DNA from: Fistulifera solaris
Taxonomy: Eukaryota
Assembly: GCA_030295235.1 (NCBI GenBank)
Contig: AP026141.1
Location: 496,001-560,000, forward strand
DNA: 64,000 nucleotides
Reading direction: 5' to 3'
The position numbers and the translations under genes are program-made. Under the pieces are notes generated by a model. That model saw nothing but the letters and a program-made list of their open reading frames with translations. It had not been told where the DNA came from and ran no database searches. Positions within the stretch are counted from its first letter, which is position 1. The number at the start of each line of letters is the position of its first letter. Of this stretch, positions 1,479 to 52,675 are shown one piece after another.

Positions 1479-2592
1479 TTAAGGTCCATCTGCCGTCTTC
1501 CAATCCAAAATTTCTACCTTCATCTCATCCAATATCCGCTTAACCCGTTGAACAATCGCCCGTCCCCATAGTTTGTAGCTTCAGCATTCGGATGTATAGC
1601 GTCTTGAAATAGCGTTATATTTCGATGCAAAACATCCTTGATTCCATAAAGAGTGCCGTGGCGTCAAAGAACTCCACGTGGGGAGTCGCTTCCGCATAGC
1701 AATGCAACAATTCATTCACCTGTCGGGCCAGCGTTTGCCGTCGCGTCACTGGCAAGATCGAATTAATGACCACACGGGTAGGTTGATACCTATGTGCTAA
1801 GATGGCTTGCACGACTTCCATGATCCCCGACAGGACCGCCTCGGGTGTACAATCTCTCTTTAGAATATCGAAAACTCCAACCGTGATCCAAACAACCGGT
1901 GCTACAACTACGTCGCCTTTCAATTCTCCGTTTCGTATTCGATACAACAGTTGACTGTAACCATCTTCACCCACTCCGAGCGGAACGCCCTTGACCGACG
2001 TGTCACCCCTGGCACCAAAGCGTTCCGTAAAGACGTCTTTGATGGGATGATAACCACCACGTCCATGTGAGTCCGGCATCGGAACGCGTGAGAAATACGT
2101 CCCTTGCCACCGCTCGGTCAATGAATCACCCACGAGCAGTACATCGAGGGCGTCCATGACATGTTCGAAGGGTTGCAGGAGAAACGAGTTTCGTTGTAGT
2201 GTACGATCCCACCATTCCTTCTTTTCATCATATTCACTTGGCACAGCCGGATCCGGACAAACACAATCGGTATTTTCCAAGCAACGATGTTCGCTATCTT
2301 TCATTCGTTTCAATAGTGTATGTCGAAGGAAATAGTCGGCATCCGACACGAGCTCCTTGCAATCCAATTCCAGGAAGGTTGAATCGACGGGATACAAATC
2401 GTTGATATTATCAACATCGTCTTGTATCTTCAGTCGAGAACCGACAATCAAGAGAATCAGTACGCTTCCAGCCAGCAAGAAGAGCAATAGTTTGATTTTT
2501 CGACTGCTTTTTCGTGTCACGGGCACCAACAGAGCCGACACTTCTTCATCCTCGCTTTCCGTATCGCTGCACTCAATTTCGAGTCTTTGCAT
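1479..2592 (-). CDS. SGNH/GDSL hydrolase (PAF-acetylhydrolase-like), type II membrane-anchored; two apparent 1-nt frameshifts near the 3' end
   Basis: N-terminal TM (LLFLLAGSVLILLIV), block I VLLVGDSLTERW, block II GEDGYSQLLYRIRNGEL. Shifting frame at ~1640 and ~1579 restores the C-terminus QDAIHPNAE(G)YKLWGRAIVQRVKRIL...DGP*, which carries DxxH and is collinear with the neighbouring paralog. Confidence 0.8.
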
Positions 2593-3124
2593 TCTATCCG
2601 ACAAAGATGCAAGGTAGTTCGTCTTATAGGAACAAGAAATAGAGAAAGAAAATACCAGATAAGAACTGTAGGAACAACAAACTTGAGGTGACCTTTTGTT
2701 ATTGTCTTCGTTCTTTTCGTTTGCAAAAAAAGTGCGCGAAGGCAAAAACGGTCATTCTCGAAGATCATCGTCATCTGACGGATGGACAGAAATTCCAGCC
2801 CGTCACGACTTATGTTTATTATAGGACTCTTCCTCTTTGCAATTGCGAATCTTCGACTATACCTGGTATAAGCAATTGATGCTAATGAATAAGATCGACC
2901 GTCTCTAATCGTGTGTTAGCTAAAAGGTTGCAACTAGCATTGTTGCCGAAAACTAAATATCTTGTTATACTAGTATAATCCGACGGGGATCGCCTCGAGC
3001 AAGAAACTAGCAAAGGGCACTATCGACCACGATCAACAAATAGCAAAGAAAGACTTATCTATTGTTGGGTCCGTTTCAGTTGACGTCAAAATTATACTAT
3101 GGAAAGTGCCGTTGAAGCGGGTTT

Positions 3125-4195
3125 CTATAAACCTTCTTCTTCTAAAATGTGCAAGACGCGATGAACAATCGCTTCTCCCCATACCTTGTAACCTTGTGCG
3201 TTCAAATTAACCGTATCGGCAAACAAATCCGGGTTCGGACGCGAAACATTCCCCTCCATGATACTCAGCAACGGGGTCGCATCAAAAAAGTCAACATTCG
3301 GGATTTGTTGCGCGTAGCAATGCAATCGTTCGTTGACTTGTGTGACTTGCTCATTCAACGGTACTAACGAATTGATGACAATCCGTGTCGGCTGATCGTG
3401 ACTTTTCCGAATCTCTTGCAGTTGTTGGATGACGGACAAAACGCCAGCCACTACACCATCGGAGGTGCAGTCGTAATACTGCACGTCATTGATACCGATG
3501 TTAATCCACAGAATGGGAACTTTGAAAGTTACTGGCAATTCTCCATTTTGTAGACGATACAACAGTTGACTGAAACCGTCTTGCGCAATCCCCAGAGCCA
3601 AGCCACTGACGACCCGTTCGTGATCGCTGGTGACGTTTGTAGCCTGAAAATACTGTTGATACAAGGCATGAATGTCACCCCAAGCCTTATGACCCGTCGC
3701 TTTAGAACGAAAATGAGAATTGTTGGTCCCCAGCCAGTGTTCGACTAACGAATCTCCCAACATGAGAACATCCCAGTGTTTTTGGTCCGCATCCTGAATC
3801 AACTTGAGGTTGCGCTGAAAGACACTATTCCATTCCGGATCCCATGGATTCCGTGTCGAAACTTTCGGAGACTCGCATTTGCAATGTCGACGATCTCTGT
3901 CGCCCGTGACACATCTACGAGGTTGATGATTCGCCATATTTCCCACCACGTGTTGAAAGTACTTGTCATCCGCACCGACGGCGTCACAGTCAATCGAAGT
4001 GAAGGTCGAAACGACCGGTGCTACAGGCTCTTCCAGTGCCTCGGAGGACGATTCGGGTCGTAATGTCATGGCCATGACAATGATCATGAGACTTAACAGG
4101 GCGGCGATGAGAAATAAGGAAGCCCGGCGAATGTGCGGGCGATGGAAGACAGCAAAGCTGTAATGGCCGTCGCGAGTGACGCTTTCGACATTCAT
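3125..4195 (-). CDS. SGNH/GDSL hydrolase (PAF-AH-like), tandem paralog; catalytic His appears replaced by Asn
   Basis: TM anchor, VLMLGDSLVEHW, GIAQDGFSQLLYRLQNGEL, INIGIND; block V reads DTVNLNAQGYKVWG. Confidence 0.85.
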   Translation of the reverse strand: MNVESVTRDGHYSFAVFHRPHIRRASLFLIAALLSLMIIVMAMTLRPESSSEALEEPVAPVVSTFTSIDCDAVGADDKYFQHVVGNMANHQPRRCVTGDRDRRHCKCESPKVSTRNPWDPEWNSVFQRNLKLIQDADQKHWDVLMLGDSLVEHWLGTNNSHFRSKATGHKAWGDIHALYQQYFQATNVTSDHERVVSGLALGIAQDGFSQLLYRLQNGELPVTFKVPILWINIGINDVQYYDCTSDGVVAGVLSVIQQLQEIRKSHDQPTRIVINSLVPLNEQVTQVNERLHCYAQQIPNVDFFDATPLLSIMEGNVSRPNPDLFADTVNLNAQGYKVWGEAIVHRVLHILEEEGL

Positions 4196-9626: not shown

Positions 9627-11345
9627 ATGCATTCCTTATCGCGTCGAATACGTGCCTTTTCTTACTATTATTATTTGTCGAAACGCTACCATGCTTCCGA
9701 AGTGAGACAAGAAGCCTTTTACGCATCATTGCGACGGGGCGATCTTTCCCCGTCACTTTTTCAATGGATGCAACACGAAAGCAAGGTGACATGGAATCGC
9801 TTCGCCGGTGAAAATGCTCCTTTCATTCCTGTAATTGCAAGTGAACTACCCGAGATCGGACCTGCAGGAAAATTCTACTATTATTGGCACGATGACTCCT
9901 ATTTTCGGCGGCCCGTTCTCAGCGGCGAGCCGCAACGTTTGTGCCCCGCCGATCCGAATCTTGTACATATGGCAATTTCTCCCGACGAAACACAATTGGC
10001 CCGAGTCTTTCGAAATGGATCCGTCTTAATCAACTCGAAAAAACAACACTGGAACGCACGTGCTGTCGAATTCGGGCCATCCAATTCGTTGTATTGGATT
10101 GCGCAGGACGGAACCGTTTGGAGATCGATTTCTAACGCGCCAGCAGAGTCTATCTATCACGGACCGTCACATCCCGCCATGTCGTTGCGTCGGTCCAAGG
10201 GCGGTTCCTCTATGCTGTTAGAAAACAAAAAAACAACATGGATTTGGGAACATAGGGAAGACGGCACCATTTCCGAGCAGATATATGATACTCTGCTCGT
10301 GGACGTTCACCGGGATGGTCAAATTGTTTCGCTACAATCAACATCAAATAATGACGCAGAATGGAGCATATACGAAATGGACCTGTTTGTCGATCATGTA
10401 GTGACCTATCAACGCTCCCGCCAGGAAGAGCGGTATCGATTTGTGATTCAATCCTCCGACGGCCAAATGTTTCTTTCAGATGAAACAATAATTGATCCAT
10501 TCAGCAAGCTCACACCTTCTGGAAATATGCATTATGATACGGATATTCTACGCTATTGTCTGGAAAAGCCGTATCAACCACGAGCGACGTACGAATTCAA
10601 CATGACGAGTCATCACTTGGAGACTTTGGCATGGAATTTCGCGCCGACCTTCCACAACATGACTGAGGAACGGATGTATGCTACCAGCCCTGATGGTACG
10701 AAAATCCCTATCACCGTCTTTTCTCGTGACAATTCAACCATACATCGCGTCTTGCTGGTCGGCTACGGCGCTTACGGAAAATCGGCCAAGTGGTCTTACG
10801 ATCCCCTGTTTCATTACCTTTTGAACCAAGGTGTGGTGGTAGCCTACGCGAATATTCGTAACGACAAAATCTCTGGTATCAAGGATTACATTGCTTGTGC
10901 GGAGTGCCTGCAGTCGTATGGGAATGTGACAGCTTACGGTGTCTCAGCGGGTGGTGTGGTGGTAGGGGCCTCGTTGCAACAAGCACCCCACGTGTTTCAC
11001 AGCGGTATTTTGGTAAATGCTTTTTTGGATGTGGAAGCCACGTTGCGAAATCCTGACTTGTATTTGACAAAAGAAGATTGGGAAGAATACGGCAACCCGG
11101 AACTGGATCCTTCGATTGCATCCTATTGTCCGGTGCGAAATGTTTCACCGGGTGGTCCTCCTGTACTCGTGTTGGCCACCTTGGACGATGAGCGCGTTCC
11201 CTACTGGAATGCCCGCATCTACACCCACAAACGGGGCACGGAAAGCACCCATTTGTACATGGAGCCGAGCGGGTGTCACACTTGGAATTGCGACCGTCAG
11301 CGAATGATGGCATTACAGGCCTCCTTTGTCTTGCATTCTCAGTAA
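9627..11345 (+). CDS. S9A serine peptidase (oligopeptidase B / prolyl oligopeptidase-like), divergent
   Basis: TSPDGTKIPIT, GYGAYG, nucleophile YGVSAGG, WEEYGNP, DDERVPYW (Asp) and PSGCH (His). The N-terminus is basic and Ser-rich, possibly a mitochondrial presequence. Confidence 0.85.
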   Translation: MHSLSRRIRAFSYYYYLSKRYHASEVRQEAFYASLRRGDLSPSLFQWMQHESKVTWNRFAGENAPFIPVIASELPEIGPAGKFYYYWHDDSYFRRPVLSGEPQRLCPADPNLVHMAISPDETQLARVFRNGSVLINSKKQHWNARAVEFGPSNSLYWIAQDGTVWRSISNAPAESIYHGPSHPAMSLRRSKGGSSMLLENKKTTWIWEHREDGTISEQIYDTLLVDVHRDGQIVSLQSTSNNDAEWSIYEMDLFVDHVVTYQRSRQEERYRFVIQSSDGQMFLSDETIIDPFSKLTPSGNMHYDTDILRYCLEKPYQPRATYEFNMTSHHLETLAWNFAPTFHNMTEERMYATSPDGTKIPITVFSRDNSTIHRVLLVGYGAYGKSAKWSYDPLFHYLLNQGVVVAYANIRNDKISGIKDYIACAECLQSYGNVTAYGVSAGGVVVGASLQQAPHVFHSGILVNAFLDVEATLRNPDLYLTKEDWEEYGNPELDPSIASYCPVRNVSPGGPPVLVLATLDDERVPYWNARIYTHKRGTESTHLYMEPSGCHTWNCDRQRMMALQASFVLHSQ

Positions 11346-11764
11346 AGCGATGACAAAGGATGTTTTTCCACATTATGACGATAAGGCAGAATGGTATGGC
11401 AAGAATTGGCTTTTGGCGTGGACAAAAAATGAGGTGGGGCAGGCGATCTGCATGTGCTGTTATGACGCACAATTCGGCAAGAATTGTACTCAGATCACTA
11501 CAGTGCCACGTACTCATAGAGCGAACGCCCTAAAATAAATCCCACCGGTATATCGTATTTAGAAGGGTTACTCCTAAGAATTCAAATACATAAGAGAGGA
11601 ACGGAAAGTTCCTCCTCCGCTGGCCGGCATCGAAAAATTGGGTGAGGACGCAACAAGTGAGCAAGAGGATGAGGAAGAGACGACGCTTGGATCTCGTCCG
11701 CTTCTCTTCGACACCACGAGAACTCAGATTTTACTTTCTCGCATTGTGAGCGGTCGCCTTCACG

Positions 11765-13021
11765 ATGACGGAATTTACGAGCCACAGAGGGCAGGCAAGC
11801 CCACGCTCGAACGACCTGGCACCTCCTCGAGTCTCTCCTCGCATTAGGAAGAATAAGCCCTCAAAGCAGAGTCCAAAAAGCTCGCTTGCGATTGTCGACG
11901 ATGCGCGTAGTCTTGTTGTGGACTCAAGTGCATCACATGACGTTGCAAGTACTGCTACTGAGTTGCCTTGGGTGCAGCGAACAACATCATCCGCCCCGGT
12001 GGATGTTGATGACTCCTCCTTCTCGGATTCGCCATCAATTCATACTCCTTCACTCCAAAAATCACCCACACAAGATGCATGGGAAGAAATTCAAGCGTCG
12101 TCGCTCAATATCAAGTCCCAAATGTTGCGCTCCGCGCAGACTGCAGCCGATAGGAAAGCAGCAGCTAGTGCGACGGAGAAGAAGCCTGAGCCCAAGTTTG
12201 GAAGAGTGATCGAAGCGTTCACATCCGGAGAAATTTGTTCAAGCGAGTGGCTTTCTCCTTGCGGACGGTCGAAAGATCGGCAAGACATTGATGTGACGAC
12301 ATCTGATATGACGACAACAAGTGATGATCCGTGCTTGCCGCCAACGCCAAGATCCGTAGTCAGTTTGCTGGAAAAGGAGAATTCAGCGGACTCGAAAAGT
12401 CAGTTGGAGGGAGATGAAACGACAGTAGAACCGCACACTTTGGCCACAAAGTCTGCCGAATCCTTCGAAGAGGCCCTGACATCTTGTGCATCCACGTGCT
12501 CCTCTTCTACAGGTCGTGCTTTGAACAGCTACACCAAGGACAACCAGTCTCTCGCCGAGACGGCGGCTACCACGAAAGAAGATAGATCGCAACATCCCTT
12601 TCGATCCATGATCTATCCGACGAATTTAGAGTCACGTTTCATGGCTGCCGTTCATGTACCTGAAAGCAGTCACAACGAGTTAAGCCCTACAGAAGAAGAA
12701 GCGGGCGTCGAGACGGTGTTCTCCAGTCCGTCCCCCGAGGAACCAATGACTACCCGATTAGTGGCCATTGGAAATTCACAAGAGCATCCACCCTTACTTG
12801 GTGCTGTGAGCTCTGAATCCTCTTCAGAATCAAAAGAAGATGAAACCGTTCTAAAGAATACGACTAAGAACAAAGAATCTTTTTTTACGACGAGTGCTCG
12901 GTGGTGGAAAGGGAAGTCCCTCCAAAAGCAACGACGATGCCTCAAAGAAACAATCCACGCTCGTCTCGTTTTAAAAAACAAACACGTAACGCTTGTGTGT
13001 ACGAAATCCTTTTGCCGTTGA
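11765..13021 (+). CDS. Hypothetical S/T/E-rich, probably disordered protein
   Basis: 418-aa ATG-started ORF of low complexity with no recognisable domain. Confidence 0.55.
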   Translation: MTEFTSHRGQASPRSNDLAPPRVSPRIRKNKPSKQSPKSSLAIVDDARSLVVDSSASHDVASTATELPWVQRTTSSAPVDVDDSSFSDSPSIHTPSLQKSPTQDAWEEIQASSLNIKSQMLRSAQTAADRKAAASATEKKPEPKFGRVIEAFTSGEICSSEWLSPCGRSKDRQDIDVTTSDMTTTSDDPCLPPTPRSVVSLLEKENSADSKSQLEGDETTVEPHTLATKSAESFEEALTSCASTCSSSTGRALNSYTKDNQSLAETAATTKEDRSQHPFRSMIYPTNLESRFMAAVHVPESSHNELSPTEEEAGVETVFSSPSPEEPMTTRLVAIGNSQEHPPLLGAVSSESSSESKEDETVLKNTTKNKESFFTTSARWWKGKSLQKQRRCLKETIHARLVLKNKHVTLVCTKSFCR

Positions 13022-13149
13022 CAGTCGTAGCGTTAATGATCTAATACATTATGATAACAGCACGAACGCTTCAGTACGCAATCTAATCTGAAAATGTAAA
13101 ACGCTAGTTAAAGTCTGTATGAAGTAGCCTGTTTGTCTCGTTCCGTTCT

Positions 13150-14006
13150 TTATGATTCCAGCAACCCCGGTATTTTAACCATGCCCTTTTCGGTCCATTC
13201 CAATGTCCGCCACATGCGTTCCAATTCTTCATCACTCCCTTGCACAACAATTTCATTTTCCGTTTCATCGGCATTGGCCACTAATTTGACCGAAATTTCG
13301 TCCACCCGATCTCCCGCACTCCAATAATACACCCCCGCATACGGACTCAATAACGCAATCGCGTACCAATTCAATCCAAAGGGCAATTCGACATCATTGA
13401 ATTGCACTTGCAAGACGAGCGCCAACGACAACAACCCGAGTGCCGTACAAAATACCAAAAAGGCGGCTTGTCCCAAACTCCGCTGCACAATTCCACGAAA
13501 GGTAATGGTTTCTCCGGCGTCAACGACTTCGTAGTTGTTCGAGGTCATGTCTGTCAGAAAAGCGAGCAAAGATGAGTCACGTTTTGTCCAAGCCATCCGA
13601 TCCAAGCCTACTGATACCTACACGCCATGATTTCTCCAGCTTGTTGTCGCAGGGATTTTCCTGCAGCCGCATTTTCTCCCGCCGTGACAAAGGTTTTTCG
13701 TTTGATTTTGGCCGACGTACTGCGTTTGACTTGCGACCAAACGCCGGGAAAACTCAAGACATAAAGTCCGAGGATGGTATAATACGATGCTTTACTGTAC
13801 GAAACACCTCCCACTTCCGGAGGTCCTTCGACTGCGGAAAGCAACAACGAAGAAAAATAATCGTTTTGTGTCACATCGACGAAAGGATCCATCGGCATCA
13901 TCATCGCTCGCGATAATCTAGGATAATTCGTTTGGGATGTCACGACAAACGCACGGCATTGAGTAGCGCATGAAAGGAGAAATGTAAATATCCAAGTGAT
14001 CTTCAT
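13150..14006 (-). CDS. CCB1: CCB1, cytochrome b6 heme ci assembly factor, plastid-targeted, 2 exons
   Basis: Signal peptide with CRA|FVV cleavage site; SYSKASYYTILGLYVLSFPGVWSQVKRS, EIMAY(splice)MTSNNY, FRGIVQRSLGQAAFLVFC, LSPYAGVYYW and EELERMWRTL..EKGMVK. Intron 13551-13621 (GT-AG). Confidence 0.9.
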
Positions 14007-14367
14007 GTTCGTTGATTGTAGTAGTGATAAAGATATAGTCTTTGATAATAGCAACAACAATAAAAGCCTCTTGTTTAGTTTGCCATCATCATGTTTTTAT
14101 TACTCCGCATTGCTCGTCGCAATCGCATCGTTTATTTTCGGCCGGACTGACGTACCAGTATGGTCGCGCTTGCGCACTATACGTGACTTGCTTATGGGAT
14201 TGCAACTACGGACGACGACAGACACTTGCCCGCAACACAAAAGATCTTTTTGTTATTTGTTCGCGTCGGCCGTTTTGCAACAGTGCATCTCATTTCGCAT
14301 CTTATTCGGAAGATTCATTCCTATTCATTCTTCTTTCCTTTCAAGAAGAACAATATTTCATACAAAC

Positions 14368-15480
14368 ATGCCATCCATTGTGGTTTTGACACCCGTCTTA
14401 CCCTTCAACGACCAGAACGAGATTGTCTTGTCGGAACAAGATCAACAGCGTGATGCCTTGGATGAATACAATCATTCACGTCAACGTCGTGCGTTGATTT
14501 TACAGGAATTGCGCACGCGTCCAAGGATCGACATCCAGCTCTGTACGCCGCCCGACGACAAGACCGACTGGGTGACGCGCATCTACAGCAAAGTCCATTC
14601 GACCGAATTGTTGCAATTCTTGCAGACGGCCCCGGCCCGTTGGGAAGCCTTGGGAAACGCCGGACAAGATCCCATTGCATCTCTGGGCGCTGGATTAATT
14701 CCCATTTGTATTCCTCTCGCACGAACGACGGCTTCGCAACGTCCGAGTCAACATGTCGTCGGACAAATGGGATATTATTGTACCGACAATTGCACGCCGT
14801 TGTTTGCCGGCATCGTCGAAGAATTCCAACGCGACGCTTACCTGGTGCAGCGTGCGTTGCAAGAGTCGGGTACAGTTGTCTTGTTGCCGACACATCCGGG
14901 TCACCATGCGGCGGCCGATTGTTTTGGAGGATACTGTTATACGAATCACGCGGCGGCGTTGGCGGTGCATTTGCCCCACGAGCGAGTTGCCATTCTTGAT
15001 GTCGATTACCATTGTGGCAATGGCACGGCCGCCATTTTTGATAATGACCCGAATGTACTCGTGGTCAGTTTGCATTGCGATCCGGACTACGATTATCCCT
15101 TCCATGCCGGATTTGCCGATGATGTCGGTACCGCTGGTACCACGTGTCATCTGCCGTTGCCACCGGGGACCGATTGGGCGCAATATCAACCGGCGTTGCA
15201 ACAAGGTTTACAACGCATTCGGGATTTTGGTGGCACGGTTTGCATTGTATCGTTGGGATTGGATACGTACGATCAAGATCCGTGTGCCTTGCGACGAGCG
15301 GGATTTCATTTGCGAGACGATGATTATATCGCCATGGGTCAGTGCATCGCACAAGGACTCGATGCGAATGTACAAGTCTTGTTTGTTCAGGAAGGTGGGT
15401 ATCGCATGGAGAAGGTACCCCAGGCGGCGGCCGATGTGATTTGTGGATTTGCGGAAGAACGCGAGAAATTGAGTGAATGA
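14368..15480 (+). CDS. Histone deacetylase-family amidohydrolase (acetylpolyamine amidohydrolase-like)
   Basis: PGHHA, GGYCYTN, Zn-binding DVDYHCGNGT, VSLH, SLGLDT and QEGGY motifs; intronless; ATG at 14368. Confidence 0.88.
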   Translation: MPSIVVLTPVLPFNDQNEIVLSEQDQQRDALDEYNHSRQRRALILQELRTRPRIDIQLCTPPDDKTDWVTRIYSKVHSTELLQFLQTAPARWEALGNAGQDPIASLGAGLIPICIPLARTTASQRPSQHVVGQMGYYCTDNCTPLFAGIVEEFQRDAYLVQRALQESGTVVLLPTHPGHHAAADCFGGYCYTNHAAALAVHLPHERVAILDVDYHCGNGTAAIFDNDPNVLVVSLHCDPDYDYPFHAGFADDVGTAGTTCHLPLPPGTDWAQYQPALQQGLQRIRDFGGTVCIVSLGLDTYDQDPCALRRAGFHLRDDDYIAMGQCIAQGLDANVQVLFVQEGGYRMEKVPQAAADVICGFAEEREKLSE

Positions 15481-17872: not shown

Positions 17873-18258
17873 TGTTTGCAAGCAAATGAAATAGAAAAGG
17901 TTGTAAGGAAGGCAAGAGAAAGACAAGGGAGAGGCGCAACGACTGGCGGTGCGATTGTTGCTGCAAACAGCGCCGTGTTTTTCTCGCGAATGACGCCTGC
18001 AAACGGACGCCAAGATGATGGCGAGATGATGCTGACGTTGCACTGTGCAAGAATGGACGTACCGACGTACCGGTACTTGGAAACAAGGTGAAAAACGTGT
18101 TCGGTTAAACCTGAACCATGCATGGTTGAACCTGTGAACTTGCACCTAACCTAAGTCGACAATGGAGGAGTCAATCTAGAGAGGTCTAATTTGCAAGAAA
18201 AGAACATAATCAACCACGAAACTATACATAGAACTGTTTCAAACAAAAAGGAGTGCAA

Positions 18259-19088
18259 CTACTTGTCTGCTTGAAGAGCCGCCACGACGGATGCGGAGTC
18301 GGTCACGGACCCAAAGATCCCTCCTTGTGCCGTAATCATGCGGAGCGCCGTTTCGTGAAAGTCATCAAAGAAGGAAGCACACGCATCCGACACGGCAATG
18401 CAGTGATAGCCACGATCGTTGGCTTCTCGGATGGTGGTATGGACACAGACTTCGGTCGTGACACCCATGACCAACAAGGTCATAATTTTTTGGGCTTGCA
18501 AGATGGCTTCCAAGTCTGTGGCATAGAAAGATCCTTTTCCTGGTAGAATAATAATGAAAACAAGATGTAATATAGCAGTGAGTACAGTAACCCTTGTCCA
18601 TCCATTTCCAACGAGTGACGACGCCTACCGGGTTTGTCCACGACCGGCTCACCGGCAATGGGATACAGTTCTTCAATAATATCATGACCTTCTTCACCAC
18701 GAATTAAAATTCGACCCATGGGACCCATTTCACCAATGGCCGGGGGTACGGCGCCGTGCTTGTCATGCTTCCAGGCGTGCACATCGGCCATGCTGGGACG
18801 GTGGCCCTAAACAAGAAGGAGGTGAGATAACAATCATCAAAGAGTCACACTCAAAACATCACGGATACGCACTTCACGGGTATGAATCACCAACATATTC
18901 CGAACCCGTGCCGCTTCCAGCACATTTCGACAGGGCTGAATGGCGCGCGTCAATTTCGAAACATCGTTCCCCAACTTTTCGCCAAAACCACCCGGCAACA
19001 AAAAGTCGCGTTGCATATCGATGATGAGGACCGCCGTACGCGACAAATCAATCGTTCCATCCCGTGGTTGCATTTGAATCGGAACCAT
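18259..19088 (-). CDS. trtA: Isochorismatase-family cysteine hydrolase, triuret hydrolase (TrtA)-type, 3 exons
   Basis: Exons 19088-18873, 18806-18629 and 18539-18259. Catalytic triad D (IIDMQ), K (DKPGKG), C (TTEVC). Discriminating positions follow the TrtA type: [10 protein letters not shown] (F, L, N), TTEVC (E), CASFF (aromatic), QGGIF (I). Confidence 0.85.
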
Positions 19089-19483
19089 GGTGTTTGTTCA
19101 ATATTCCTTTATTGGATGAAAAAAAACAAGAAAACACAACCGAAAAAGGACCGGAATGAGTTTGATGAAAGAACAAATAACAATAATAAAATGTTATTGT
19201 GATTTATTGTGCGAAGAAAAGATCCTCTTCTAAAAAACGTACGGATCCGTCTTTTATGGACTATAGAACTAAATGTAGTATCGTTGTTGTACTCTTTGTG
19301 TCTCTCTTCTTCTTCTCCTGCCGAGATCGGAAGATGGGCATTTCATTTTTTGTTCCATTTCATTGATTCTTCTTTTGTTGTCGCAAACGTCGAACGTCAC
19401 TCGTTGGATTCAACAGGCGCAAAAAGGAGTCCATTCATATAATATATAAAGATAATATTCGATCGACTTCAACAGAATCGAAG

Positions 19484-20416
19484 ATGTTGCATACTCATTC
19501 TTTATCTGCTTACTTCTTCTTCTTCTTCTTGTTATTGTGCTTCTACGGCACCGTCATCGCTCACGAGTATTTAATTGTCGGTGTCAGTGGGGGATTGCAA
19601 GATGGATTCCCCGAACGTTCGAAAATGGATTATCATCACGGTCAAGACGATGCCGTTCCGGCACTATTTCTTGGAAAAGGTCTGGTGCGCGGCTATAAAG
19701 CCTTTTTGGATGTCATGCAACCGGGATGGCGACAATATATTGAAGAACCCGGACAACCGCTCATCAACAGTAACGTGTTTCCGACGGGATGTTACGAACA
19801 TGCGAATGAATATTGGATTTATTTAATTGACGCTCGTCAAGTCATGGCCGTCTTGAACAATGAACCACGGTTTCTGAGTATCACACCCGACACGGGGATG
19901 GTCGATTTGCAGGCGGGCGAAACGACCCCAGTCGTGCGCGCTTTGTTCACCAATATTATTCAACAGCAAGGCAAATCCGATTTCGAAAGGGTCGCTATTC
20001 CACTCGTCACCGCCGTTTGGTTTCAAAAGGAATCGCATGTACCCAGTCCACCGATTCGTATACACGACGATGGCACGCAGATTACCAATTTCCCCGAATC
20101 GTTGGCCCTGTGGGCCAATGTGAGTGATGCCGATCGGACTGCTTTAGTACAAGAAGACTGTTCCGATCAAACGTGTTCCGCCGAAGCCCTCCAACGCGTC
20201 CAACGGTATTGGGATGGCATTCGTCGCGCCGTCCGTCACGCCGAGCAGTCGTTGGCGGAGTTGAAAGAAGTCGATTACGGTCCACCCTTTTCCTGTCAAA
20301 AGAAAGTACGCTTTGGTGTAGGAAATGACACGGCCCGGATCAATGATCCCTTTTCGAGCGAACAAATGACGGAACTATTACAATCGGTAGGATTCCATTT
20401 AGAACAAAACAGCTAG
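19484..20416 (+). CDS. Hypothetical secreted protein (310 aa) lying between trtA and biuH
   Basis: ATG-started intronless ORF with a hydrophobic signal-like N-terminus (FFFFFLLLCFYGTVIA|HEY) and globular-looking composition; no recognisable motif. Confidence 0.7.
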   Translation: MLHTHSLSAYFFFFFLLLCFYGTVIAHEYLIVGVSGGLQDGFPERSKMDYHHGQDDAVPALFLGKGLVRGYKAFLDVMQPGWRQYIEEPGQPLINSNVFPTGCYEHANEYWIYLIDARQVMAVLNNEPRFLSITPDTGMVDLQAGETTPVVRALFTNIIQQQGKSDFERVAIPLVTAVWFQKESHVPSPPIRIHDDGTQITNFPESLALWANVSDADRTALVQEDCSDQTCSAEALQRVQRYWDGIRRAVRHAEQSLAELKEVDYGPPFSCQKKVRFGVGNDTARINDPFSSEQMTELLQSVGFHLEQNS

Positions 20417-20436
20417 AAATTATTGAATATTTGTTT

Positions 20437-21398
20437 TTACGTTTCACTACTCGATAGACACCGAATGAGCGTTGCGGAATCCGTGACGGCACCAAAGACA
20501 CCTCCTTGTTTTTGAATCATGGAAATCGCCGCATCATGATTCAGAGGATCCGTGGCGGCACAACAATCTGAAACGAGTAAACATTCGTAGCCCATGTCGT
20601 TTCTAGAAACCCAGAAAGCATGTTGAGTCCAATTCCATCCAGATGCAACCCAGAACGATACTTTTCAACTTACGCATTGCGCATCGTCGTATGAACACAC
20701 ACATCGGTGGTGACACCCGCCAGAATGATATTGACAATGCCTTTGGAACGCAAAATCAAATCCAAATTCGTGCCTAAAGTTGTGATGTAAGACGAACCAT
20801 CTCCTCTACACTCCAACACACACAGCAGACGCACGCACCAACAAAGGAACCCTTGCCGGGTTTATCAATGACCATTTCGTTGGGTAAGGGAGCCAATTCG
20901 GGTATAATTTCCCATCCCGGTTCTCCTTTCACCAAAATGCGACCACAGGGTCCGGCCGAACCAATGCCGGCGCCAATCTGTTGACTTCGCCACAATTTAT
21001 TGGGCGGACAATCGGCCAAATCGGGGCGATGTCCTTCGCGGGTATGTAAAATGTGATATCCCAAGCCGCGCATACATTCCAATACATTTTGAATGGGTTC
21101 AATCGGTTTCCGTGTCAACGAAATCTATATCCAAAGTGAGTCAGTGCGAGAGTGTCTCATTTTTCTCCCTTGCGATATATTTTCCGTTACTTACATCGTA
21201 TCCCATCTTGTCAACGTATCCACCTTGAGAACAGAAATCGACCTAAAAGAGTGTCAACAATCGTTTCGACGAAGCAATCGATTCGTTCCTTTTTCTAGGA
21301 CGCACCTGCATATCAATCACAATAATACACGTATTTGACGGATGCAAGTTTCCATTGTACGGCCATAAATACGGTTGCGCGTCAATGTATTTTGTCAT
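20437..21398 (-). CDS. biuH: Biuret hydrolase (BiuH), isochorismatase family, 5 exons
   Basis: Exons 21398-21306, 21242-21195, 21124-20839, 20773-20674 and 20602-20437 splice to [16 protein letters not shown]...[31 protein letters not shown]...[29 protein letters not shown]...DKPGKGSF...[20 protein letters not shown]...CAATD...QGGVFG. BiuH-type residues Y, M, Y, D, T, V are all present. Confidence 0.92.
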
Positions 21399-22206
21399 CT
21401 TTCTGCGTTACTTGCTTTTTGCTCTAGCAAGAAATCGTTCTTTTTTCGCCGATGCAAACAATGAGTTATGTTTGCCGCAAAGAGGAGATCAAGGAACGAA
21501 TATTCATGATAATTTTTTCATCCGAGATCCAACGCAACGTGGAGAGGTACGGTACCGGTACCTGGTACTTATTGTACCGGTATCTTATTCGAGATTGATT
21601 ATTCGCGATGGCGCGAACAGGGAACCAGAATTTTGGAAGCCCACAAGCCCACAAGGGTGGCCAACGAAACTTCGCGCGAGGTTGAAGGAAGTTGATTCAT
21701 GTGAGTTCCTACTGTTTGTTCGAGAGTCAATGACGCATGACTTCATTCTTCCCGTAGTGACGTGCATGGTCGTACTTTATGGCAGCGTCATGAGACATGA
21801 GATCCTCCCATTTTCTGGATTACTTTTATGCCATTGGACAGTTTTGCTGTTTTTAGAATCAACCGAATTACATACTTTTACTGTAAGCTACTCCAAACTC
21901 CAAACTAGCTTACTAACGCGTTCGCAGTATACATGTCACACAGACGTCACTCGATCGTCGTTGTTCCGATGGACTTGGAGTACTTTTTGCAGGAAGACGT
22001 TTCACGTAGAAATTGACGTACAAAGTGAGTACACAACGATGCCGAGCACGTGGATCGGCTCGATCTTCTCATTTCTTCAACAGAACATTGGTGATGGTAT
22101 TGTTTTTCACCTGGCGATAGCGATCCTTCTTCGATTTGATCCTCTCGGATCGTTTCATTGTTTATTTTTTTGTTATAATATCGATCGGTTGCATTTCCTG
22201 CCAACT
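21399..22206. promoter_or_regulatory. Divergent (possibly bidirectional) intergenic region between biuH and the permease
   Basis: Head-to-head ATGs at 21398 (-) and 22207 (+). Contains clustered GGTAC/GTACC motifs at ~21546-21582. Confidence 0.45.
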
Positions 22207-24532
22207 ATGCCGGAACCGAAACTTCCACCCAACGAATCGACCTTTGCAGAGGATGTCAAGTCCATGTTTTCCATGACCCCCGCCGATTGGGGTTGTCTTT
22301 GTCAGCTCTTTTTGACAATCTTTCCACGCTGCTCGGTGCACTCTTTGCCATTCAAGGATTGGCCAATTTGGGAGATATCAGTGCCGATTTGAGTATGGTC
22401 AATTACTATATTTTCGGGAAGATTGTGCCCGGTGTCGGTGTCACGTTGCTCGCCGGAAACATTTACTATGCGTGGCAAGCGTCGCGTCTCACCAATCGGT
22501 GGGGACGACAATACACGGCACAGCCGTACGGATTGAATACGCCGGCGGCCTTTTCATTCGTCTTTAACATCATGTGTAAGTGCCTGATAAGACGCCGGGA
22601 GTGTAGGGTGTCGATCGTCAACACATTTATCTCTCTCTTCCAACCTATCTCTCTCAATCTCTCTCTTCCAATCAACACACACGCAGACCCTGTCTATTTC
22701 AGTTTGGTGTTTACGGAAGGCCCCGAAGTTGCCTTCAAGACGGCCTACGATGTCGCTTTGGCGGCCAACTTTATTACCGGTTTGATTTCCACCGTCTTGG
22801 CCTTTTTTGGTCCCTTGATTTTGCAGTACGTCCCGCCCGCCGCCCTTCTCGTGCCGATTGCCGGCATTGGCATTGCCTTTTTGGGCATGGAACAAGTCAC
22901 CAACAGTATTGCTGCCCCACTCGTCGGATATCCCGCCATTTTGTTTGCCTTTTTGGGCTGGTATTCGGGTGTCCGTTTGGGATACGGCAATTACCGTTGT
23001 CCGGAAGCACTCCAAGTCATCATGGTTGGTGTCATTATGGGTTGGTCCACGGGTCTCAACAAAAAATCCACCGTGGAAGATGCGATGGATCTCGTCAAGT
23101 GGTACGGCCCGGATTGGTCCGCCGATGACATGTTTGCGAATTTTGATCTCATTAAGGATTATTTGGGAATTGTCATTCCCATTGGGATTTCCGCCACCGC
23201 CACCACATTGATGTGTCTCGTATCGGCCAAGAATGCGGGGGATCCGGTACGTCCATCACCGTTGCTGTGTGTGTCACATTCGATCTTATGTTCTTACCCT
23301 TGTCTCCCACAGTTCCCCGTTCGTGAATCGATGATTGCGGATGGTATCGGAACCATGATTGCGTCCTTTTTCGGTTCTCCGTTCGGCACGGTCATTTGTA
23401 AGTCCAGAGTGTGGTTCAAGTGAAGAGATGATTGACTGAATTCAAAAATACTCACTGTTTTCTTTGCCACACAGACATTGGACATCCGGCTCACAAGCGC
23501 AGTGGTGCCAAGACCGGATACAGTATGGCTAACGGTCTCATTTACTTTATCTTGTCGTGGTTTGGAATTCTGGCTTTTATTCAGAGCATTGTCAATGTCG
23601 CAACCATTGGTCCGATTGTTTTGTTTGTCGGTACGTCGATTATGGGAGTCGGCAATGGGATTCGATCGATCGATCAATTTCTCACCCAATGATTTTTTTG
23701 CCTTTTTTAGGTCTCGCCATCAACGAGGAATGTTTGAACTTTATTCCGTCCCGTCATTATGCAGCCTACATGTAAGTACCGAATCCCTCTCTCGAGGATG
23801 TCTTTTGTTACGGCATCTGACAACAGTTTTTCATTCGACAGCGTTGGTTTGTTTCCCTCCATTTTTGATTGGGTCGTGAATGTGTCGAATCGCAGTCCTC
23901 TCGGTAATGACGCGGATGGAAATACCAATTTCCCCGGTGGCGATGGTTGGTTTGGTATCTTGGCTTGGAAACGCGGTGCCTTGTTGGTCTCCTTTGTGTG
24001 GGTTGCCATTTTGGTACGTGAAGTGCATGCTCTCTGTTACAATATTGTTCCTTTCTTTTTCTTATTCTTTTATTGCTTTTAGGTCAGTGTGATTGATCGT
24101 CAATGGAACAAGGCGACCTTTTGGAGTTTGTTGGCGGCCGGTTTCTCTCTCTTTGGTATCATTCACATGCCCGAAGCTGGTTTGGAGAAGTTGTCCGAAC
24201 CGTTTTGGGAACAGTGTCCCGCCGGCGGTTCCTGTTGGGAACATGGCGAACAGTGGATGTACTTTGTGGCCTATCTCATGTTTGCGGGCATTTTTGTGCT
24301 CATCGAATTGGCCCGTCGCTCCGGTCTCGATGAACAACTCTTGCCCGGTCTGGAAGATCCGACCTCGGACGAATTCAAGGACTGGTTCCGTGACGCCGAA
24401 AAGACGACGCACACGGTCACCAAGACGTGGCGGGATGAATTGGAAGAGAAACGTTTGGATCCGACGGTGCAGTCGAGTGAGAAAGTGATGGGATCGGACG
24501 ACGATGATTCGCCCGTCGAAGGAGACGCCTAA
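22207..24532 (+). CDS. NCS2/AzgA-like (xanthine/uracil-type) permease, 7 exons, one apparent poly-T frameshift at ~22310
   Basis: DW..LCQLF(F)DN, YTAQPYGLNTP, VPPAALL, FPVRESMIADGIGT, FGSPFGTVIYIGHPAHK..GAK.GYS and multiple TMs. GT-AG introns at 22576-22686, 23247-23312, 23398-23474, 23631-23710, 23772-23841 and 24014-24082 all keep the frame. Confidence 0.85.
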
Positions 24533-25378
24533 GTATGCGTCCTATTTTGTGTTTTTTGAAAAGAATTTTCAGCGAGAGATGTCTCTGTATCATTTTGATT
24601 GAACGATATTATAATTTGCAATAATATCTACTTTGTTTGTGTCTTTGATAGCAGCATTATAGTTTTTTCATCGAGGACCATGCACCGCATGCATGCATGC
24701 TGAGAGGCGTTAGTTGTTTCGTTAATAGCGTCTTATTGCTGGTACGACTTACATCCACAGTAACAGTGTCCAGTATACCACTCCTCCGTGAATTTTGGCA
24801 TACCTTGCGGCGACGACGATGAACGACCATAATAAAGGCGCGCATAGAACCATTAATACTCATCGCAAGAGATCATGAACGCAAGTTGTTGCTATTATGA
24901 TTACAGTATGCTGGAAATTAATGAGAAAGTCATGACAGCCATCATTGTGAGACAAGTAGCCGTCATTGGAAAGGATCGAAAGAATGAACTGGAAGCTGAT
25001 GTCCACAAAGTTCCGCCTCTTTTCTCTTTCTGCTCGAGTTTGTTTCGCTTTTTTCTTCTTGTCGACCTCTCTAGAAGATTATCAAGTGGTCGGTGCTGGT
25101 AATAATTGAAGAGGTGGTAGCTATTTCGCCACGATTTGCAACGAAGCAAACACCGCAACGAGTGTCGACGGATCGTTGATGCTGCGTGTTCGCGGAGCAC
25201 GCAAGCAAAATTAGGACACTACTCTTATTCTTTCTCAAGAGTAGATGTCACGGAGCGCGTGAAAATGGACGTGAGATAGGAATGACAAAATGCAGACGGC
25301 TGGATCGGAAGGATCACGATTAGCTCCTTTTTGGATGACTCCGGGCTACTCATCAGCAAAGATATTTTTTGCCGTTTC

Positions 25379-26130: not shown

Positions 26131-29100
26131 ATGCCGAAGACACCGAAAAATGTCCATGTGAGGGTGCATGGCCGCCACCTCGAAGAGGAGGCAGAAGCTC
26201 CGAAAGAAACGTGGGAAATCGTCTTTGCTTCGATTGTCATCATTCTCATGTTTGTCGGTCTCGTACTCGAACGCATTGGGGCGGATCATGTCATGTTGAT
26301 CACCATGACTATGTTTATGGTTACTGAGATCATTACCGTAAAAGAAGGCCTCGCGGGCTTTTCGAACAGCGGTGTAATCACTGTAATGATTCTCTTTGTT
26401 GTTGCCGAAGGTATCTCGAAGACTGGTGCTCTCGATTGGTACATGTCCAAGTTGTTGGGTGCTCCGAAGAGCATTGCGAGCGCCCAACTTCGCATTCTGA
26501 TTCCCATTACCTTTGTGAGTGCGTTCCTGAACAACACTCCGATTGTGGTAGTGATGCTTCCTGTTGTCCTTCAGTGGGCCAAAAACAACCGGCTTCCCCG
26601 ACAGCAGCTGCTCATTCCCTTGTCTTTCGCTGCCATCTTCGGTGGTACGTGCACTTTGATCGGTACCTCGACGAACTTGGTGGTGTCCGGTTTGGTGGAA
26701 GAACGATACGGTGATACGGTCAAGATCGAGCTCTTTGATGTGGGTGAATTTGGTGTGCCTCTTGCCTTGATCGGTATTGCCTACGTGTTACTTTTCAGTC
26801 CCTGGCTTCTTCCGGGTGAGATCGAACAGGAGGAGGAAGCAATTCTTCTGGGTGCCCGAGTAACCCCGTGGTCTCCGGCTGCGGGACGAACGGTGCAACG
26901 AAGTGGATTACGCGAGACAGGCGGCATCTACTTGGTCAGTGTCCTTCGTGCGGAGACCGGAAACGTCCACCGTGCCGTATCGAGAGACTTTGTGTTGAAT
27001 GCCGGTGATACGCTTTACTTTACCGGACTCGTCGAATCGTTCGGTGACTTTTGCGAGGAACATGCTCTTGAAATCCTCACGAATGAAACAGAGAATGACA
27101 CCAGCGCCGTCTCCGCGGATGTGACAAACCTTCAAGTCGGAAGTACCAAGGAGTCGTTGTTGAATGTCGACGAAGGTGAACGCTTGCGAAACATTCACCG
27201 GTTGACAGATTTGATTCGTGGGGCGAAAGGATCTGATACGGATATGCTTGGTGCTCCGCCCAGCATTGTCGTGAGCATGGATGAAGAAGTCGTGGTTGTC
27301 GGTGTGAATACACCCGATCGTCCAGGATTGATGCTCGACATCTCCAAAACTTTGCTTAAACTTGGTCTTGAGCTGCATCACACGGAGGCAGCGGTCCACG
27401 GCACTCGTTCTTTGTCCATTTGGCGTACCGAAACCATTCAGTCCGAAGATCTTCCAGATTTAGAGAAGATCTGGAGTGTTTTGAACGCGTTACTATCTAC
27501 CGACGGTGGTGCTACTAAGCAGAGGGGTTTGCGAGTGCTTCGCGCCCAGATTCGAAAGGGTTCTCGCTTGGAGGGAAAGACGGCTTCTGAGGTTGACTTC
27601 CACAAGCTCTACAAGGCTGCCCTGGTGGTCGTCCCCAAGAGTCAATTGAAAGAAGGAGACGTCGTTGTGTTGCAAGCCAAGGAAGGTTCTCCTTTGCTTC
27701 TCGAGCCTCCCGCCGACTTCTACAAGCAGCTCGACGACAAGAACGTCTCGAAGTCGTTGTTGAAAAGCTTGGTATCGGGCCGTTCCAGTCGTACCGACAG
27801 TGAGGCCGCGTCGGCTTCCCATGAGAGTGACATTGAAGATGCCGCCGGCGTGGAAGGAGCTTGGAAAGATTTGCAGGTTGTAACGCCACGGGCTGAAGAG
27901 GGACTGGAGTTTTTGACGGCCATGGCCGTGGCTGAGAAGTCAGGCCTTGTTGGAAAGTCTGCCAACCAGCATGGCATCACGCGACTTCCCTCTGTTTATC
28001 TTGTCAGCATTGATCGCCCCACCCCTGCAGGAACCGGCCAGTTGACGATGCAAGGTGGCAAGTCTGGCTTGGACAAGGCTCTCTCTGACTTCGACAAAAG
28101 CGACCATCATGTTTCGTCGATCGCAATCACCCGAGACGACCCGCTTCAAGTTGGTGATATTCTTTGGTTCAGTGGAAGCGCATCGGCGGTTGGTGACTTG
28201 CGCAAGATCCCCGGATTGCGTTCTTTCGAGAGCGAGGAAGTCAGCAAGATCGAAGATACGGTTTTCGATCGTCGTTTGGTGCAGGCCGTTGTCGCTCGAA
28301 GTGGCGCGTTGGTGGGCCACACGGTCAAGGAAGCTCGTTTCCGCTCGCGCTACGGAGCTGCCGTCATTGCTGTTGACCGCGAAGGAAAGCGAATTCACGA
28401 CCATCCGGGTCAAATCAAGTTGCATGCTGGTGATGTGTTGCTCCTTGAAGCTGGTCCAACTTTCTTTTCCAAGTCTGCTGAGCATGATCGGTCGTTTGCC
28501 CTGTTGGCCGAGGTTGAAGATTCGGCTCCTCCTCGTCTAAGCTTGATAATTCCGGCCGTGTTGATTGTTGTGACCATGTTGGCAGTGTACACAGCAGAGC
28601 TCATCGATTTGGTTGTGGGTGGTCTTCTTGCTTCGTTCTTGATGGTGGCGATTGGATGCTTATCGGAACAAGAAGCACGCGACTCAATCCACTGGGATAT
28701 CTACGTGATCATCGGATCTGCTTTCGGCATCGGTTCTGGTATGTTGAATTCTGGTCTTGCTGATATCGTTGCAGACTTTCTTGTCGACGTTGGCAAAGCG
28801 ATCAGCCTTGGTGAAGCAGGATTGGTAGCCGCCATCATGTTGGCGGCATTTTTGATCAGTAGTATTTTGACGAATAACGCAGCAGCTGCTTTGCTGTTTC
28901 CCATTGCCATGAATGTTGCCGAAAGCGCCGGTATTGATCTGAAGCTGATGAGTTTCGCTCTCATGTTGAGCGCTTCTGACTACATGACGCCATACGGATA
29001 TCAAACCAACTTGTTGGTTTATGGACCCGGAGGATACACGTTTGGTGACTTTGTGCGCTTTGGTATTCCTTTGCAACTGTTGTTGTGGATTTGCGGTGCT

Positions 29101-29253
29101 TTGTTCTTGACGGTGTTTGACTGGTACATCAGCTGGATTGGAAGTGCGGTGGTACTTGCCGCTGTCATGGCTTTTCGACTATTGGGCGACGCTTCGACTT
29201 CTCGCTCCAATCAGAGTCGACGCAACAGCTTAAATCATCAGGTGTTCCAGTAG
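26131..29253 (+). CDS. SLC13-family Na+/sulfate cotransporter (SLT/SAC1-like) with TrkA-C domains and an ACT-like insert
   Basis: SAFLNNTPIV, GGTCTLIGTSTNLVV, repeated TrkA-C segments, LTNNAAAAL and TPYGYQTNLLVYGPGGY; intronless, 1040 aa. Confidence 0.92.
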   Translation: MPKTPKNVHVRVHGRHLEEEAEAPKETWEIVFASIVIILMFVGLVLERIGADHVMLITMTMFMVTEIITVKEGLAGFSNSGVITVMILFVVAEGISKTGALDWYMSKLLGAPKSIASAQLRILIPITFVSAFLNNTPIVVVMLPVVLQWAKNNRLPRQQLLIPLSFAAIFGGTCTLIGTSTNLVVSGLVEERYGDTVKIELFDVGEFGVPLALIGIAYVLLFSPWLLPGEIEQEEEAILLGARVTPWSPAAGRTVQRSGLRETGGIYLVSVLRAETGNVHRAVSRDFVLNAGDTLYFTGLVESFGDFCEEHALEILTNETENDTSAVSADVTNLQVGSTKESLLNVDEGERLRNIHRLTDLIRGAKGSDTDMLGAPPSIVVSMDEEVVVVGVNTPDRPGLMLDISKTLLKLGLELHHTEAAVHGTRSLSIWRTETIQSEDLPDLEKIWSVLNALLSTDGGATKQRGLRVLRAQIRKGSRLEGKTASEVDFHKLYKAALVVVPKSQLKEGDVVVLQAKEGSPLLLEPPADFYKQLDDKNVSKSLLKSLVSGRSSRTDSEAASASHESDIEDAAGVEGAWKDLQVVTPRAEEGLEFLTAMAVAEKSGLVGKSANQHGITRLPSVYLVSIDRPTPAGTGQLTMQGGKSGLDKALSDFDKSDHHVSSIAITRDDPLQVGDILWFSGSASAVGDLRKIPGLRSFESEEVSKIEDTVFDRRLVQAVVARSGALVGHTVKEARFRSRYGAAVIAVDREGKRIHDHPGQIKLHAGDVLLLEAGPTFFSKSAEHDRSFALLAEVEDSAPPRLSLIIPAVLIVVTMLAVYTAELIDLVVGGLLASFLMVAIGCLSEQEARDSIHWDIYVIIGSAFGIGSGMLNSGLADIVADFLVDVGKAISLGEAGLVAAIMLAAFLISSILTNNAAAALLFPIAMNVAESAGIDLKLMSFALMLSASDYMTPYGYQTNLLVYGPGGYTFGDFVRFGIPLQLLLWICGALFLTVFDWYISWIGSAVVLAAVMAFRLLGDASTSRSNQSRRNSLNHQVFQ

Positions 29254-52058: not shown

Positions 52059-52675
52059 TCTGATTTGATGTAAGTTGCTTCTCACTTTGAGATCTCTCTG
52101 TTGTGTATGTGTGGGTACAAGATGAAGATTTCGTTGTTTCAAGAAGACAAAAACAAAAAGTGTGCGCAAGGCGTTGTTTTGCATGAACGCGTGAAAGGTG
52201 GATCGACGGGCTCCGCCTTCTGGGAATATTTCCGTTGCGAGCAAATCACCTATGTATTTTGTGTACAATTGTTACTACCTTAAATTTTATTTAGCAGCGA
52301 ACCGAAACTTTACATGACGTAGCTCTAAGTATTTTTTGGTACGCAATACAAAACGGAAAAGTTGTCAACGTGGTTTCTGATTTCTGACCAAAGTGTACTG
52401 AAACCATGCTTTCCATTATGTCTTACCGCTTACCGCAATTGTGACATAAACGGAATAACTTCCACGGTGGATGGACAGACCAATAGCTAAGTCTCTAGTA
52501 CTGTAGATCAGGACTAGGTAGGCAGGGAGCAGAAAGATGAAAGGGTAAGGGCAAGCAAGAGTTGCTGACTATCGAAAGCAGTCTAGGTCTATAAGAAGAG
52601 GGAACCCGCATAACCTTACAACCAAAATGATTATCACAAGAATACTTGTAGCTAAACATTCTATCATTAGACTGT

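Follow-up and report, generated by a model that had tools for sequence, protein, structure and literature searches.

The closest described counterpart of the locus treated here is a bacterial pathway, comprising TrtA, TrtB, BiuH and AtzF, that acts on triuret and biuret, two compounds akin to urea that arise in the breakdown of uric acid; it is described for Herbaspirillum sp. BH-1 and for Rhizobium leguminosarum (PMC7948467; PMC12625717). TrtA gives ammonia and carboxybiuret (PMC7948467), the BiuH reaction, to ammonia and allophanate, is likewise established, and both carboxybiuret and allophanate decarboxylate spontaneously, to biuret and urea, respectively (PMC6219798). TrtB, a carboxybiuret decarboxylase of about 126 aligned positions, has been treed with AtzH and HpxZ (PMC12625717), a type of protein with an NTF2-superfamily fold (PMC6219798). 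Some fungi and phytoplankton have trtA, and where triuret comes from in nature and what it does there are posed as open questions; in the parts of that paper available to us, the only transporter named is an ABC cassette, and no permease is mentioned (PMC7948467). BMP/Nup ABC and CodB transporters are named in PMC12625717. Here, we describe a related gene cluster from Fistulifera solaris, located in a 64,000-nucleotide stretch of DNA (GenBank assembly GCA_030295235.1, 51.7 Mb in 62 contigs; contig AP026141.1, C38 below, positions 496001–560000), to which we refer as the window.

The window contains a eukaryotic cluster of four genes: trtA, biuH, a permease gene divergent from biuH, and an unannotated gene, orfX. 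We regard it as a real conserved feature, in which known enzymes are joined by two less familiar proteins, a carrier that is uncharacterised and a partner that is unannotated. The earlier note on this DNA named neither trtA nor orfX, so the unit is larger than the one it described; its placing of the permease start about 810 bp from that of biuH, on the opposite strand, agrees with the 808 bp found between the two start codons (22207 on the plus strand, 21398 on the minus strand). The features are as follows.

22207–24532, plus strand: permease, seven exons, about 622 residues, ATG at 22207 and stop at 24532; exons 22207–22575, 22687–23246, 23313–23397, 23475–23630, 23711–23771, 23827–24013 and 24083–24532
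22309–22313, plus strand: run of five T, one base short relative to the frame of homologues; a frameshift as assembled
21399–22206, no strand: divergent intergenic region of 808 bp, candidate bidirectional promoter
20437–21398, minus strand: biuH, biuret hydrolase, five exons, 230 residues, ATG at 21398; exons 21306–21398, 21195–21242, 20839–21124, 20674–20773 and 20437–20602
19484–20416, plus strand: orfX, single exon, 310 residues, a conserved but unannotated member of the cluster
18259–19088, minus strand: trtA, triuret hydrolase, three exons, 224 residues; exons 18873–19088, 18629–18806 and 18259–18539

The likeness to the bacterial pathway lies in the clustering of TrtA and BiuH paralogues with a transporter gene. 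The algal genes, however, are eukaryotic and spliced, with GT-AG introns, and pennate diatoms supply the closest named homologues of both the permease and orfX. The algal transporter is a single NCS2-fold permease, whereas the bacterial papers name a BMP/Nup ABC cassette. Furthermore, the algal cluster lacks a TrtB (AtzH/HpxZ-like) or AtzF gene, with urease encoded elsewhere in the genome (C9/C10), and it has an additional, apparently secreted, GGCT-fold gene, orfX.

The spliced frames of both hydrolase genes are intact. Exon 3 of biuH finds Rhizobium BiuH (6azo) as its top PDB match, with E 1.5e-44 as against 1e-24 for TrtA, and the whole protein is 69% identical to one that scores above the NCBIfam BiuH cut-off. 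It has the catalytic triad, and, at the positions of F35, N41, E160 and I205 (numbering of PMC7948467, used throughout), it has Tyr, Tyr, Asp and Val, the residues of a BiuH. The last exon of trtA, in turn, matches TrtA (6xix) best in the PDB, with E 7.8e-31 as against 1e-25 for BiuH. The Asp-Lys-Cys triad of TrtA is present, as are the equivalents of D24, F29, F35, N41, E72, K129, K132, E160, C162, Q202 and I205, so that the residues are those of a TrtA; Y187 is replaced by F and A134 by S, the latter change being harmless in TrtA (PMC7948467). The two proteins are paralogues, with 105 identities in 233 columns. An exon-wise search of the genome for allophanate hydrolase scored at best 94.5 bits, where the cut-off is 511; the enzyme was thus not found, which does not exclude it.

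The pairing of permease and biuH is not due to chance, since both the second copy of the region and unrelated metagenome contigs keep it. The second copy lies on contig C39, has approximately 70–87% nucleotide identity to the window, reads as a homoeologous subgenome and preserves the order of the cluster genes. There are about five isochorismatase-family loci per subgenome, from which we estimate a chance of about 0.3% that one would fall within 8 kb of a given gene. In a scan of metagenome contigs, 62 permease loci were reduced to 36 groups after dereplication, and the sequence upstream of the permease extends for at least 1 kb in 13 of them and for at least 4 kb in seven; these contigs carry no taxon labels, and their eukaryotic origin is read from the tree described below. 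An isochorismatase-like hydrolase is present in seven of the 13 eukaryote-clade groups (five with clear BiuH or TrtA signatures, one partial, one of a third type). With at least 4 kb upstream, a hydrolase is found in 5/7 and orfX in 4/7.

Individual contigs vary in arrangement. L108 has the order of the window, orfX(+), biuH(−), permease(+), and also a second orfX paralogue, 45% identical, immediately downstream of the permease (11064–11990, minus strand). L105 has trtA(−), orfX and the permease, and a separate biuH is missing both from the 8 kb upstream and from the 10 kb downstream; a cytidine/TadA-type deaminase gene (2540–3112, plus strand) lies about 1.3 kb past its trtA. In L135 (4540–9006), a permease only 30% identical to that of the window is accompanied by a third hydrolase, a 473-residue BiuH–TrtA fusion, orfX and a gene that resembles cytosine deaminases (PRK07583, 357 bits, below the cut-off). 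In L150, hydrolase and orfX are both downstream of the permease, and an orfX-like domain and a third-type hydrolase share one open frame (12260–14266), either as a fusion or as two abutting genes. The hydrolase-linked contigs include permeases only 30–37% identical to that of the window, and BiuH/TrtA linkage recurs on several branches of the eukaryote permease clade. Indirect support comes from five permease/orfX homologue pairs of shared source, matched by eye, including two Seminavis robusta records.

Between the homoeologs, two non-coding blocks of the divergent region, at about 21615–21775 and 21955–22085, are well conserved and are candidate regulatory elements. When four divergent regions were compared, no 9-mer was common to all, and only A/T-rich 8-mers were shared. 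The biuH gene on C39 has an extra intron at REGHRP/D (about 3480–3575 of locus L005) that is without counterpart in the window (21018–21027). At that site, a contig from a sequencing run mostly at least 99% alike to the assembly (X1) has 87 additional letters. This intron has been gained or lost between the subgenomes.

What kind of carrier is the permease? The earlier note called it NCS2/AzgA-like and of bacterial type. The fold was assessed on a model of the homologue P0004, 73% identical to the window permease (pLDDT 72), which matches UraA, SVCT1, SLC26, AZG1 and UapA; 70 Foldseek matches have E of at most 0.001, and those listed are all of the NAT/NCS2–SLC26–SLC4 fold class. The short β strands that precede transmembrane segments (TM) 3 and 10 in UraA are present in the model, at 124–126 and 352–354. 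The NCS2 part of the description is therefore upheld by the model, whereas membership of AzgA is not: the four AzgA motifs, as defined in PMC11527162, are all absent from the window permease, and each is absent from all 30 algal homologues examined. In AzgA, the substrate-binding residues are Glu E394 in TM10 and Asp D339 and D342 in TM8 (PMC11527162); TM3 has an Asn, N131. The AzgA YIES of TM10 aligns to YIGH in the permease, so the purine-binding Glu is replaced, and the aligned TM8 has a core without an acidic residue at the positions of the two aspartates. By eye, the GLN of PYGLNTP resembles the Asn motif of AzgA TM3, although no usable local alignment resulted there (score 18).

The likeness to AzgA, PhZ and AtAZG1/2 is thus confined to the fold class and to TM9–TM12, which are in register with AzgA; the four motifs and the TM8 aspartates are lacking, ES is GH in TM10, and PF00860 falls under its cut-off (exon 3 scores 16.3 bits and one of four full-length homologues 16.8, where the gathering cut-off is 27). 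Some homologue records do have a precomputed PF00860 match. No NCBIfam family matched three permease homologues, and an hhalign comparison of the algal profile with one bacterial AzgA was not significant. We conclude that, as judged from model and alignment, the permease works like an NCS2-fold carrier outside AzgA, with a predicted binding site of a different kind.

The two motifs that the earlier note reported are both present in the spliced model, PYGLNTP (residue 107) and YIGHPAHK..GA (residue 339), the latter formed only once intron 3 is spliced out; both are nearly invariant in the 30 algal homologues. The label "bacterial-type" fits the family only, since this gene, with its six GT-AG introns, is itself eukaryotic. 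The family is large, with 2,283 representatives at 50% identity, and in the literature searched we found no member with a measured substrate. The Pelagomonas "XUV" permease was considered as a member and set aside; that gene is K23887, and its membership of the family is not shown. A 939-residue transcript-derived protein (P0261) combines RCC1 repeats with a permease of this family and may be a chimeric assembly.

The bacterial relatives with a GHP motif, named "regulator", "xanthine permease" or "xanthine/uracil/vitamin C permease", are about 25–35% identical to the algal proteins and have PxG...T and YIGHP in common with them. One of their clades adjoins TrtA; the algal proteins form a separate clade and differ in their TM8 residues. 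We surveyed 401 Pseudomonadota genomes, taking genes within 3 kb as adjacent and hits of at least 137 bits as BiuH-type. The permease family is present in 42 genomes and a BiuH/TrtA-like hydrolase in 34. Gene-neighbourhood analysis of the bacterial homologues, which the earlier note had proposed, thus bears out a link: the permease lies beside such a hydrolase in 10 of the 42, and in all ten the hydrolase is TrtA-type. Among the 23 genomes with a BiuH-type gene, four have the permease and one has it beside BiuH. A ureide substrate had been suggested from context, in the form of a candidate biuret/triuret importer. The tie to the biuret and triuret hydrolases stands, both in the eukaryote-clade contigs and in bacteria; of the two compounds, triuret is the better guess, because the bacterial linkage is to TrtA and so seldom to BiuH. 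In one bacterial locus (L184:86–4148, genome G369), a gene that by eye is ammonium-transporter-like, the permease and an AH_C–TrtA fusion stand in a row. In another (L199, genome G004), the permease adjoins trtA and a BMP-ABC cassette adjoins biuH, an arrangement that may mean that the two uptake systems differ in substrate.

The fourth gene, orfX, has 227 homologues, and none of the 120 listed has a Pfam domain. A Pfam search of 109 family members found no match, NCBIfam has no family for it, PDB sequence searches were empty or returned chance matches, and an Atlas search gave a best score of 0.78 and no family. Within this genome, it occurs only at the window locus and on C39. A GGCT-like fold is seen in its AF2 model, which is confident (pLDDT 92.8). 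The best comparisons, with root-mean-square deviations of 2.1–2.2 Å over 126–130 residues, are with E. coli c4763 (5c5z; Z 12.1) and with the C-terminal domain of allophanate hydrolase, AH_C (4iss residues 481–614; Z 11.9, 2.2 Å, 130 residues). Generic GGCT proteins come next, at Z 10.3 and 9.9, only about two Z units lower. Unlike AH_C and c4763, with which it shares the fold, orfX has approximately 90 extra C-terminal residues, conserved cysteines and a signal-like N-terminus, and no sequence or profile match between them is significant (AH_C, PF21986: hhalign E 0.055, against an alignment of nine rows only).

The N-terminus is hydrophobic in 77 of the 91 homologues that could be scored, and orfX, therefore, seems to lie outside the cytosol, on the outer or luminal side of a membrane. 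A carboxybiuret or allophanate decarboxylase would be the natural guess for its role, but that N-terminus would put the protein on the wrong side for one acting in the cytosol. An identification with TrtB was rejected, as TrtB groups with AtzH and HpxZ, of NTF2-superfamily fold, and orfX is GGCT-like. In bacteria, G369 has a c4763-type AH_C domain and TrtA in one 355-residue frame adjoining the permease, and G004 has a stand-alone c4763-type protein within a trtA–permease–biuH cluster. Because of these two clusters, the GGCT-like fold can be said to accompany the pathway in both domains of life; for E. coli c4763 itself, a link to the permease is not shown.

How might the four genes work together? 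We lean, with moderate confidence, towards the permease being a carrier of triuret, perhaps of biuret, to cytosolic TrtA and BiuH, the route ending in urea and urease. What the permease would bring into the cytosol is a linear poly-ureide, most probably triuret, with biuret as a possible second substrate. TrtA would convert triuret to ammonia and carboxybiuret, which would lose CO2 to give biuret; BiuH would then convert biuret to ammonia and allophanate, which would lose CO2 to give urea, and the urease of the genome would liberate the final two nitrogens. This proposal draws on trtA and biuH being intact and of the right type, on the kept gene order, on the recurring linkage and on the presence of urease. 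It draws also on the replacement of the purine-binding Glu of AzgA TM10 and on the separate AzgA (C36/C37) and NAT genes (C30/C31, with the canonical NAT signature) encoded by the same genome. The substrate of the permease, its direction and its membrane are what we infer, as are a joint control of the genes through the divergent region and whatever part orfX plays.

Several observations weigh against a triuret carrier. Six of the 13 groups with at least 1 kb upstream have no hydrolase, and two of those six have more than 4 kb. In Pseudomonadota, 32 of the 42 permease-bearing genomes have no adjacent hydrolase; of 80 loci in one bacterial clade, one has an isochorismatase match, and another clade sits between xdhABC and guaD. 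The tree (108 sequences, a quick IQ-TREE run with SH-aLRT only, unrooted) places the eukaryotic permeases on one side of a single branch with SH-aLRT 100, not nested in the bacterial TrtA-linked clade, and an approximately unbiased (AU) test rejects a grouping of eukaryotes with the core TrtA-linked sequences (p 0.0017, the group having been chosen after the tree was viewed). The bacterial TrtA-linked carriers, moreover, keep the TM8 acidic residues that the diatom protein lacks. Finally, the assembly shows a frameshift in the permease of both homoeologs, at a site that the same-organism run leaves unbridged.

Direct descent from bacterial trtA–permease operons is rejected by the same AU test. 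Since the algal clade does not join the TrtA-linked clade, the linkage is separate from simple orthology, and the link to TrtA and BiuH would be either old in the permease family or arisen twice. Bacterial gene-context labels are strongly clustered on the tree: besides the xdhABC–permease–guaD clade, there is one with fdrA–DUF1116–permease–carbamate kinase, and the 80 bacterial loci nearest P0199 have no conserved neighbour common to more than nine. The suggestion that a ureide substrate would assign a function to the transporter group consequently fails for the group as a whole, given those other contexts.

These same contexts raise the question of whether the carrier moves an upstream product of purine oxidation, such as urate, oxalurate, allantoin or an N-carboxy ureide, that is made into triuret or biuret elsewhere. 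In this vein are the sister clades beside xdhABC–guaD or fdrA–DUF1116–carbamate kinase, the cytosine-deaminase-like gene and third hydrolase of L135, an exon-wise search for uricase (PF01014) that did not find one in the genome, though it does not establish absence, and the proposal that triuret forms by urate oxidation (PMC7948467). We nevertheless hold this to be unlikely: a NAT-type gene bearing the canonical signature is already encoded by the genome, the cluster lacks a conserved oxidising enzyme, and the bacterial permease is directly beside trtA in every hydrolase-adjacent case. Alternatively, the permease could be a carrier of the vacuole or another internal membrane, releasing triuret or biuret that derives from uric-acid crystals kept in store, with orfX in the same lumen. 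Uric-acid crystals occur in some diatoms (10.1101/2022.01.11.475817), triuret crystals have been reported in amoebae (as cited in PMC7948467), and the signal-like N-terminus of orfX has no equal in TrtA and BiuH. A signal peptide is, however, equally compatible with the cell surface, and the bacterial relatives must be plasma-membrane carriers, one of which (G001) adjoins a Tsx-like porin gene; a vacuolar carrier is, in our judgement, unlikely as well. An ordinary purine-base importer, with the adjacency to biuH reflecting a loose clustering of nitrogen genes, is very unlikely indeed. It is in line with the top PDB sequence match of the permease (AZG1, E 8e-4), with database names such as xanthine/uracil or AGZA permease, and with the clade in a xanthine operon. 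It sits badly with the missing AzgA motifs and TM8 and TM10 acidic residues, with the separate AzgA and NAT genes, and with the recurrence of BiuH/TrtA linkage on several eukaryote branches.

There is, in addition, the reading that the permease is a true pseudogene in this organism. Once the six introns are removed, the frame is open from 22311 as far as the stop, and exon 2 has 53–82% identity to algal homologues, but the first 34 codons are in a different frame from the remainder. The break falls within the motif QLFFDN, whose conservation across 30 homologues is at least 90%. As its cause, an intron or an upstream exon was rejected, since the nearby GT..AG is only about 14 nt long and the homologues need QLFFDN in one frame. 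A pseudogene is what one might suppose from the identical five-T run on C38 and C39, from two further one-base shifts on C39, and from the contig of X1, which stops at 22308 and so does not span the site. On the other hand, every shift is one base short in a T run, and X1 differs from the assembly by seven other one-letter indels in 6.4 kb, all in A/T runs. Two metagenome contigs, X2 (depth 10) and X3 (depth 3.5), have the extra T, and their six downstream substitutions, read by hand, are synonymous in the proper frame. The homoeologous permeases are also 98% identical in amino acids over residues 37–186 of exon 2, at approximately 87% nucleotide identity. It is thus probable that the frameshift is an assembly error, and a pseudogene appears extremely unlikely. 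X1 is, by our guess, RNA, and its contigs are unspliced, running through introns, which makes them uninformative on transcription. Across 18200–24600, the assembly departs from the short-read contigs by about one letter per kb in A/T runs, and other split open reading frames (ORFs) in the window may be artefacts of the same homopolymer kind.

Several other genes of the window may be mentioned. A canonical GGACT/AIG2-like gene (PF06094; 16903–17352, plus strand) lies 0.9 kb from trtA and is a second GGCT-fold gene near the cluster. A histone-deacetylase-domain amidohydrolase (PF00850) is at 13996–15480 (plus strand), and an SLC13/CitMHS-type transporter of 1040 residues, with TrkA_C and ACT-like domains, is at 26131–29253 (plus strand). 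All three were rejected as members of the cluster, since none adjoins the permease in the 62 metagenome loci. At 47142–52271 (minus strand), several long neighbouring ORFs are apparently one large gene broken across frames, possibly an AMP-binding/carrier/repeat gene.

To our knowledge, conserved metabolic gene clusters are rare in algae. In the literature searched, we found no characterised triuret or biuret transporter, and nothing on this permease family with trtA or biuH or on the algal cluster, though earlier biuret studies may mention one. The retention of the cluster in distant algal lineages suggests that triuret or biuret is supplied naturally, in the water or inside algal cells. A confirmed substrate would serve part of a large unannotated carrier family, and the orfX family, which is without a Pfam entry, would gain a context. 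It is tempting to go further and to see here an old, clustered salvage of oxidised-purine nitrogen in diatoms and other microalgae, with orfX as a new enzyme family acting beyond the membrane and the permease as the first dedicated triuret carrier; we rate this as speculative and rather unlikely. In such a salvage, orfX, secreted or vacuolar and related to AH_C, would process an N-carboxy ureide or a product of urate oxidation, and TrtA, BiuH and urease would finish the work. If this were true, triuret would be more than a fertiliser impurity; it would be a natural form in which algae store nitrogen or in which dissolved organic nitrogen circulates.

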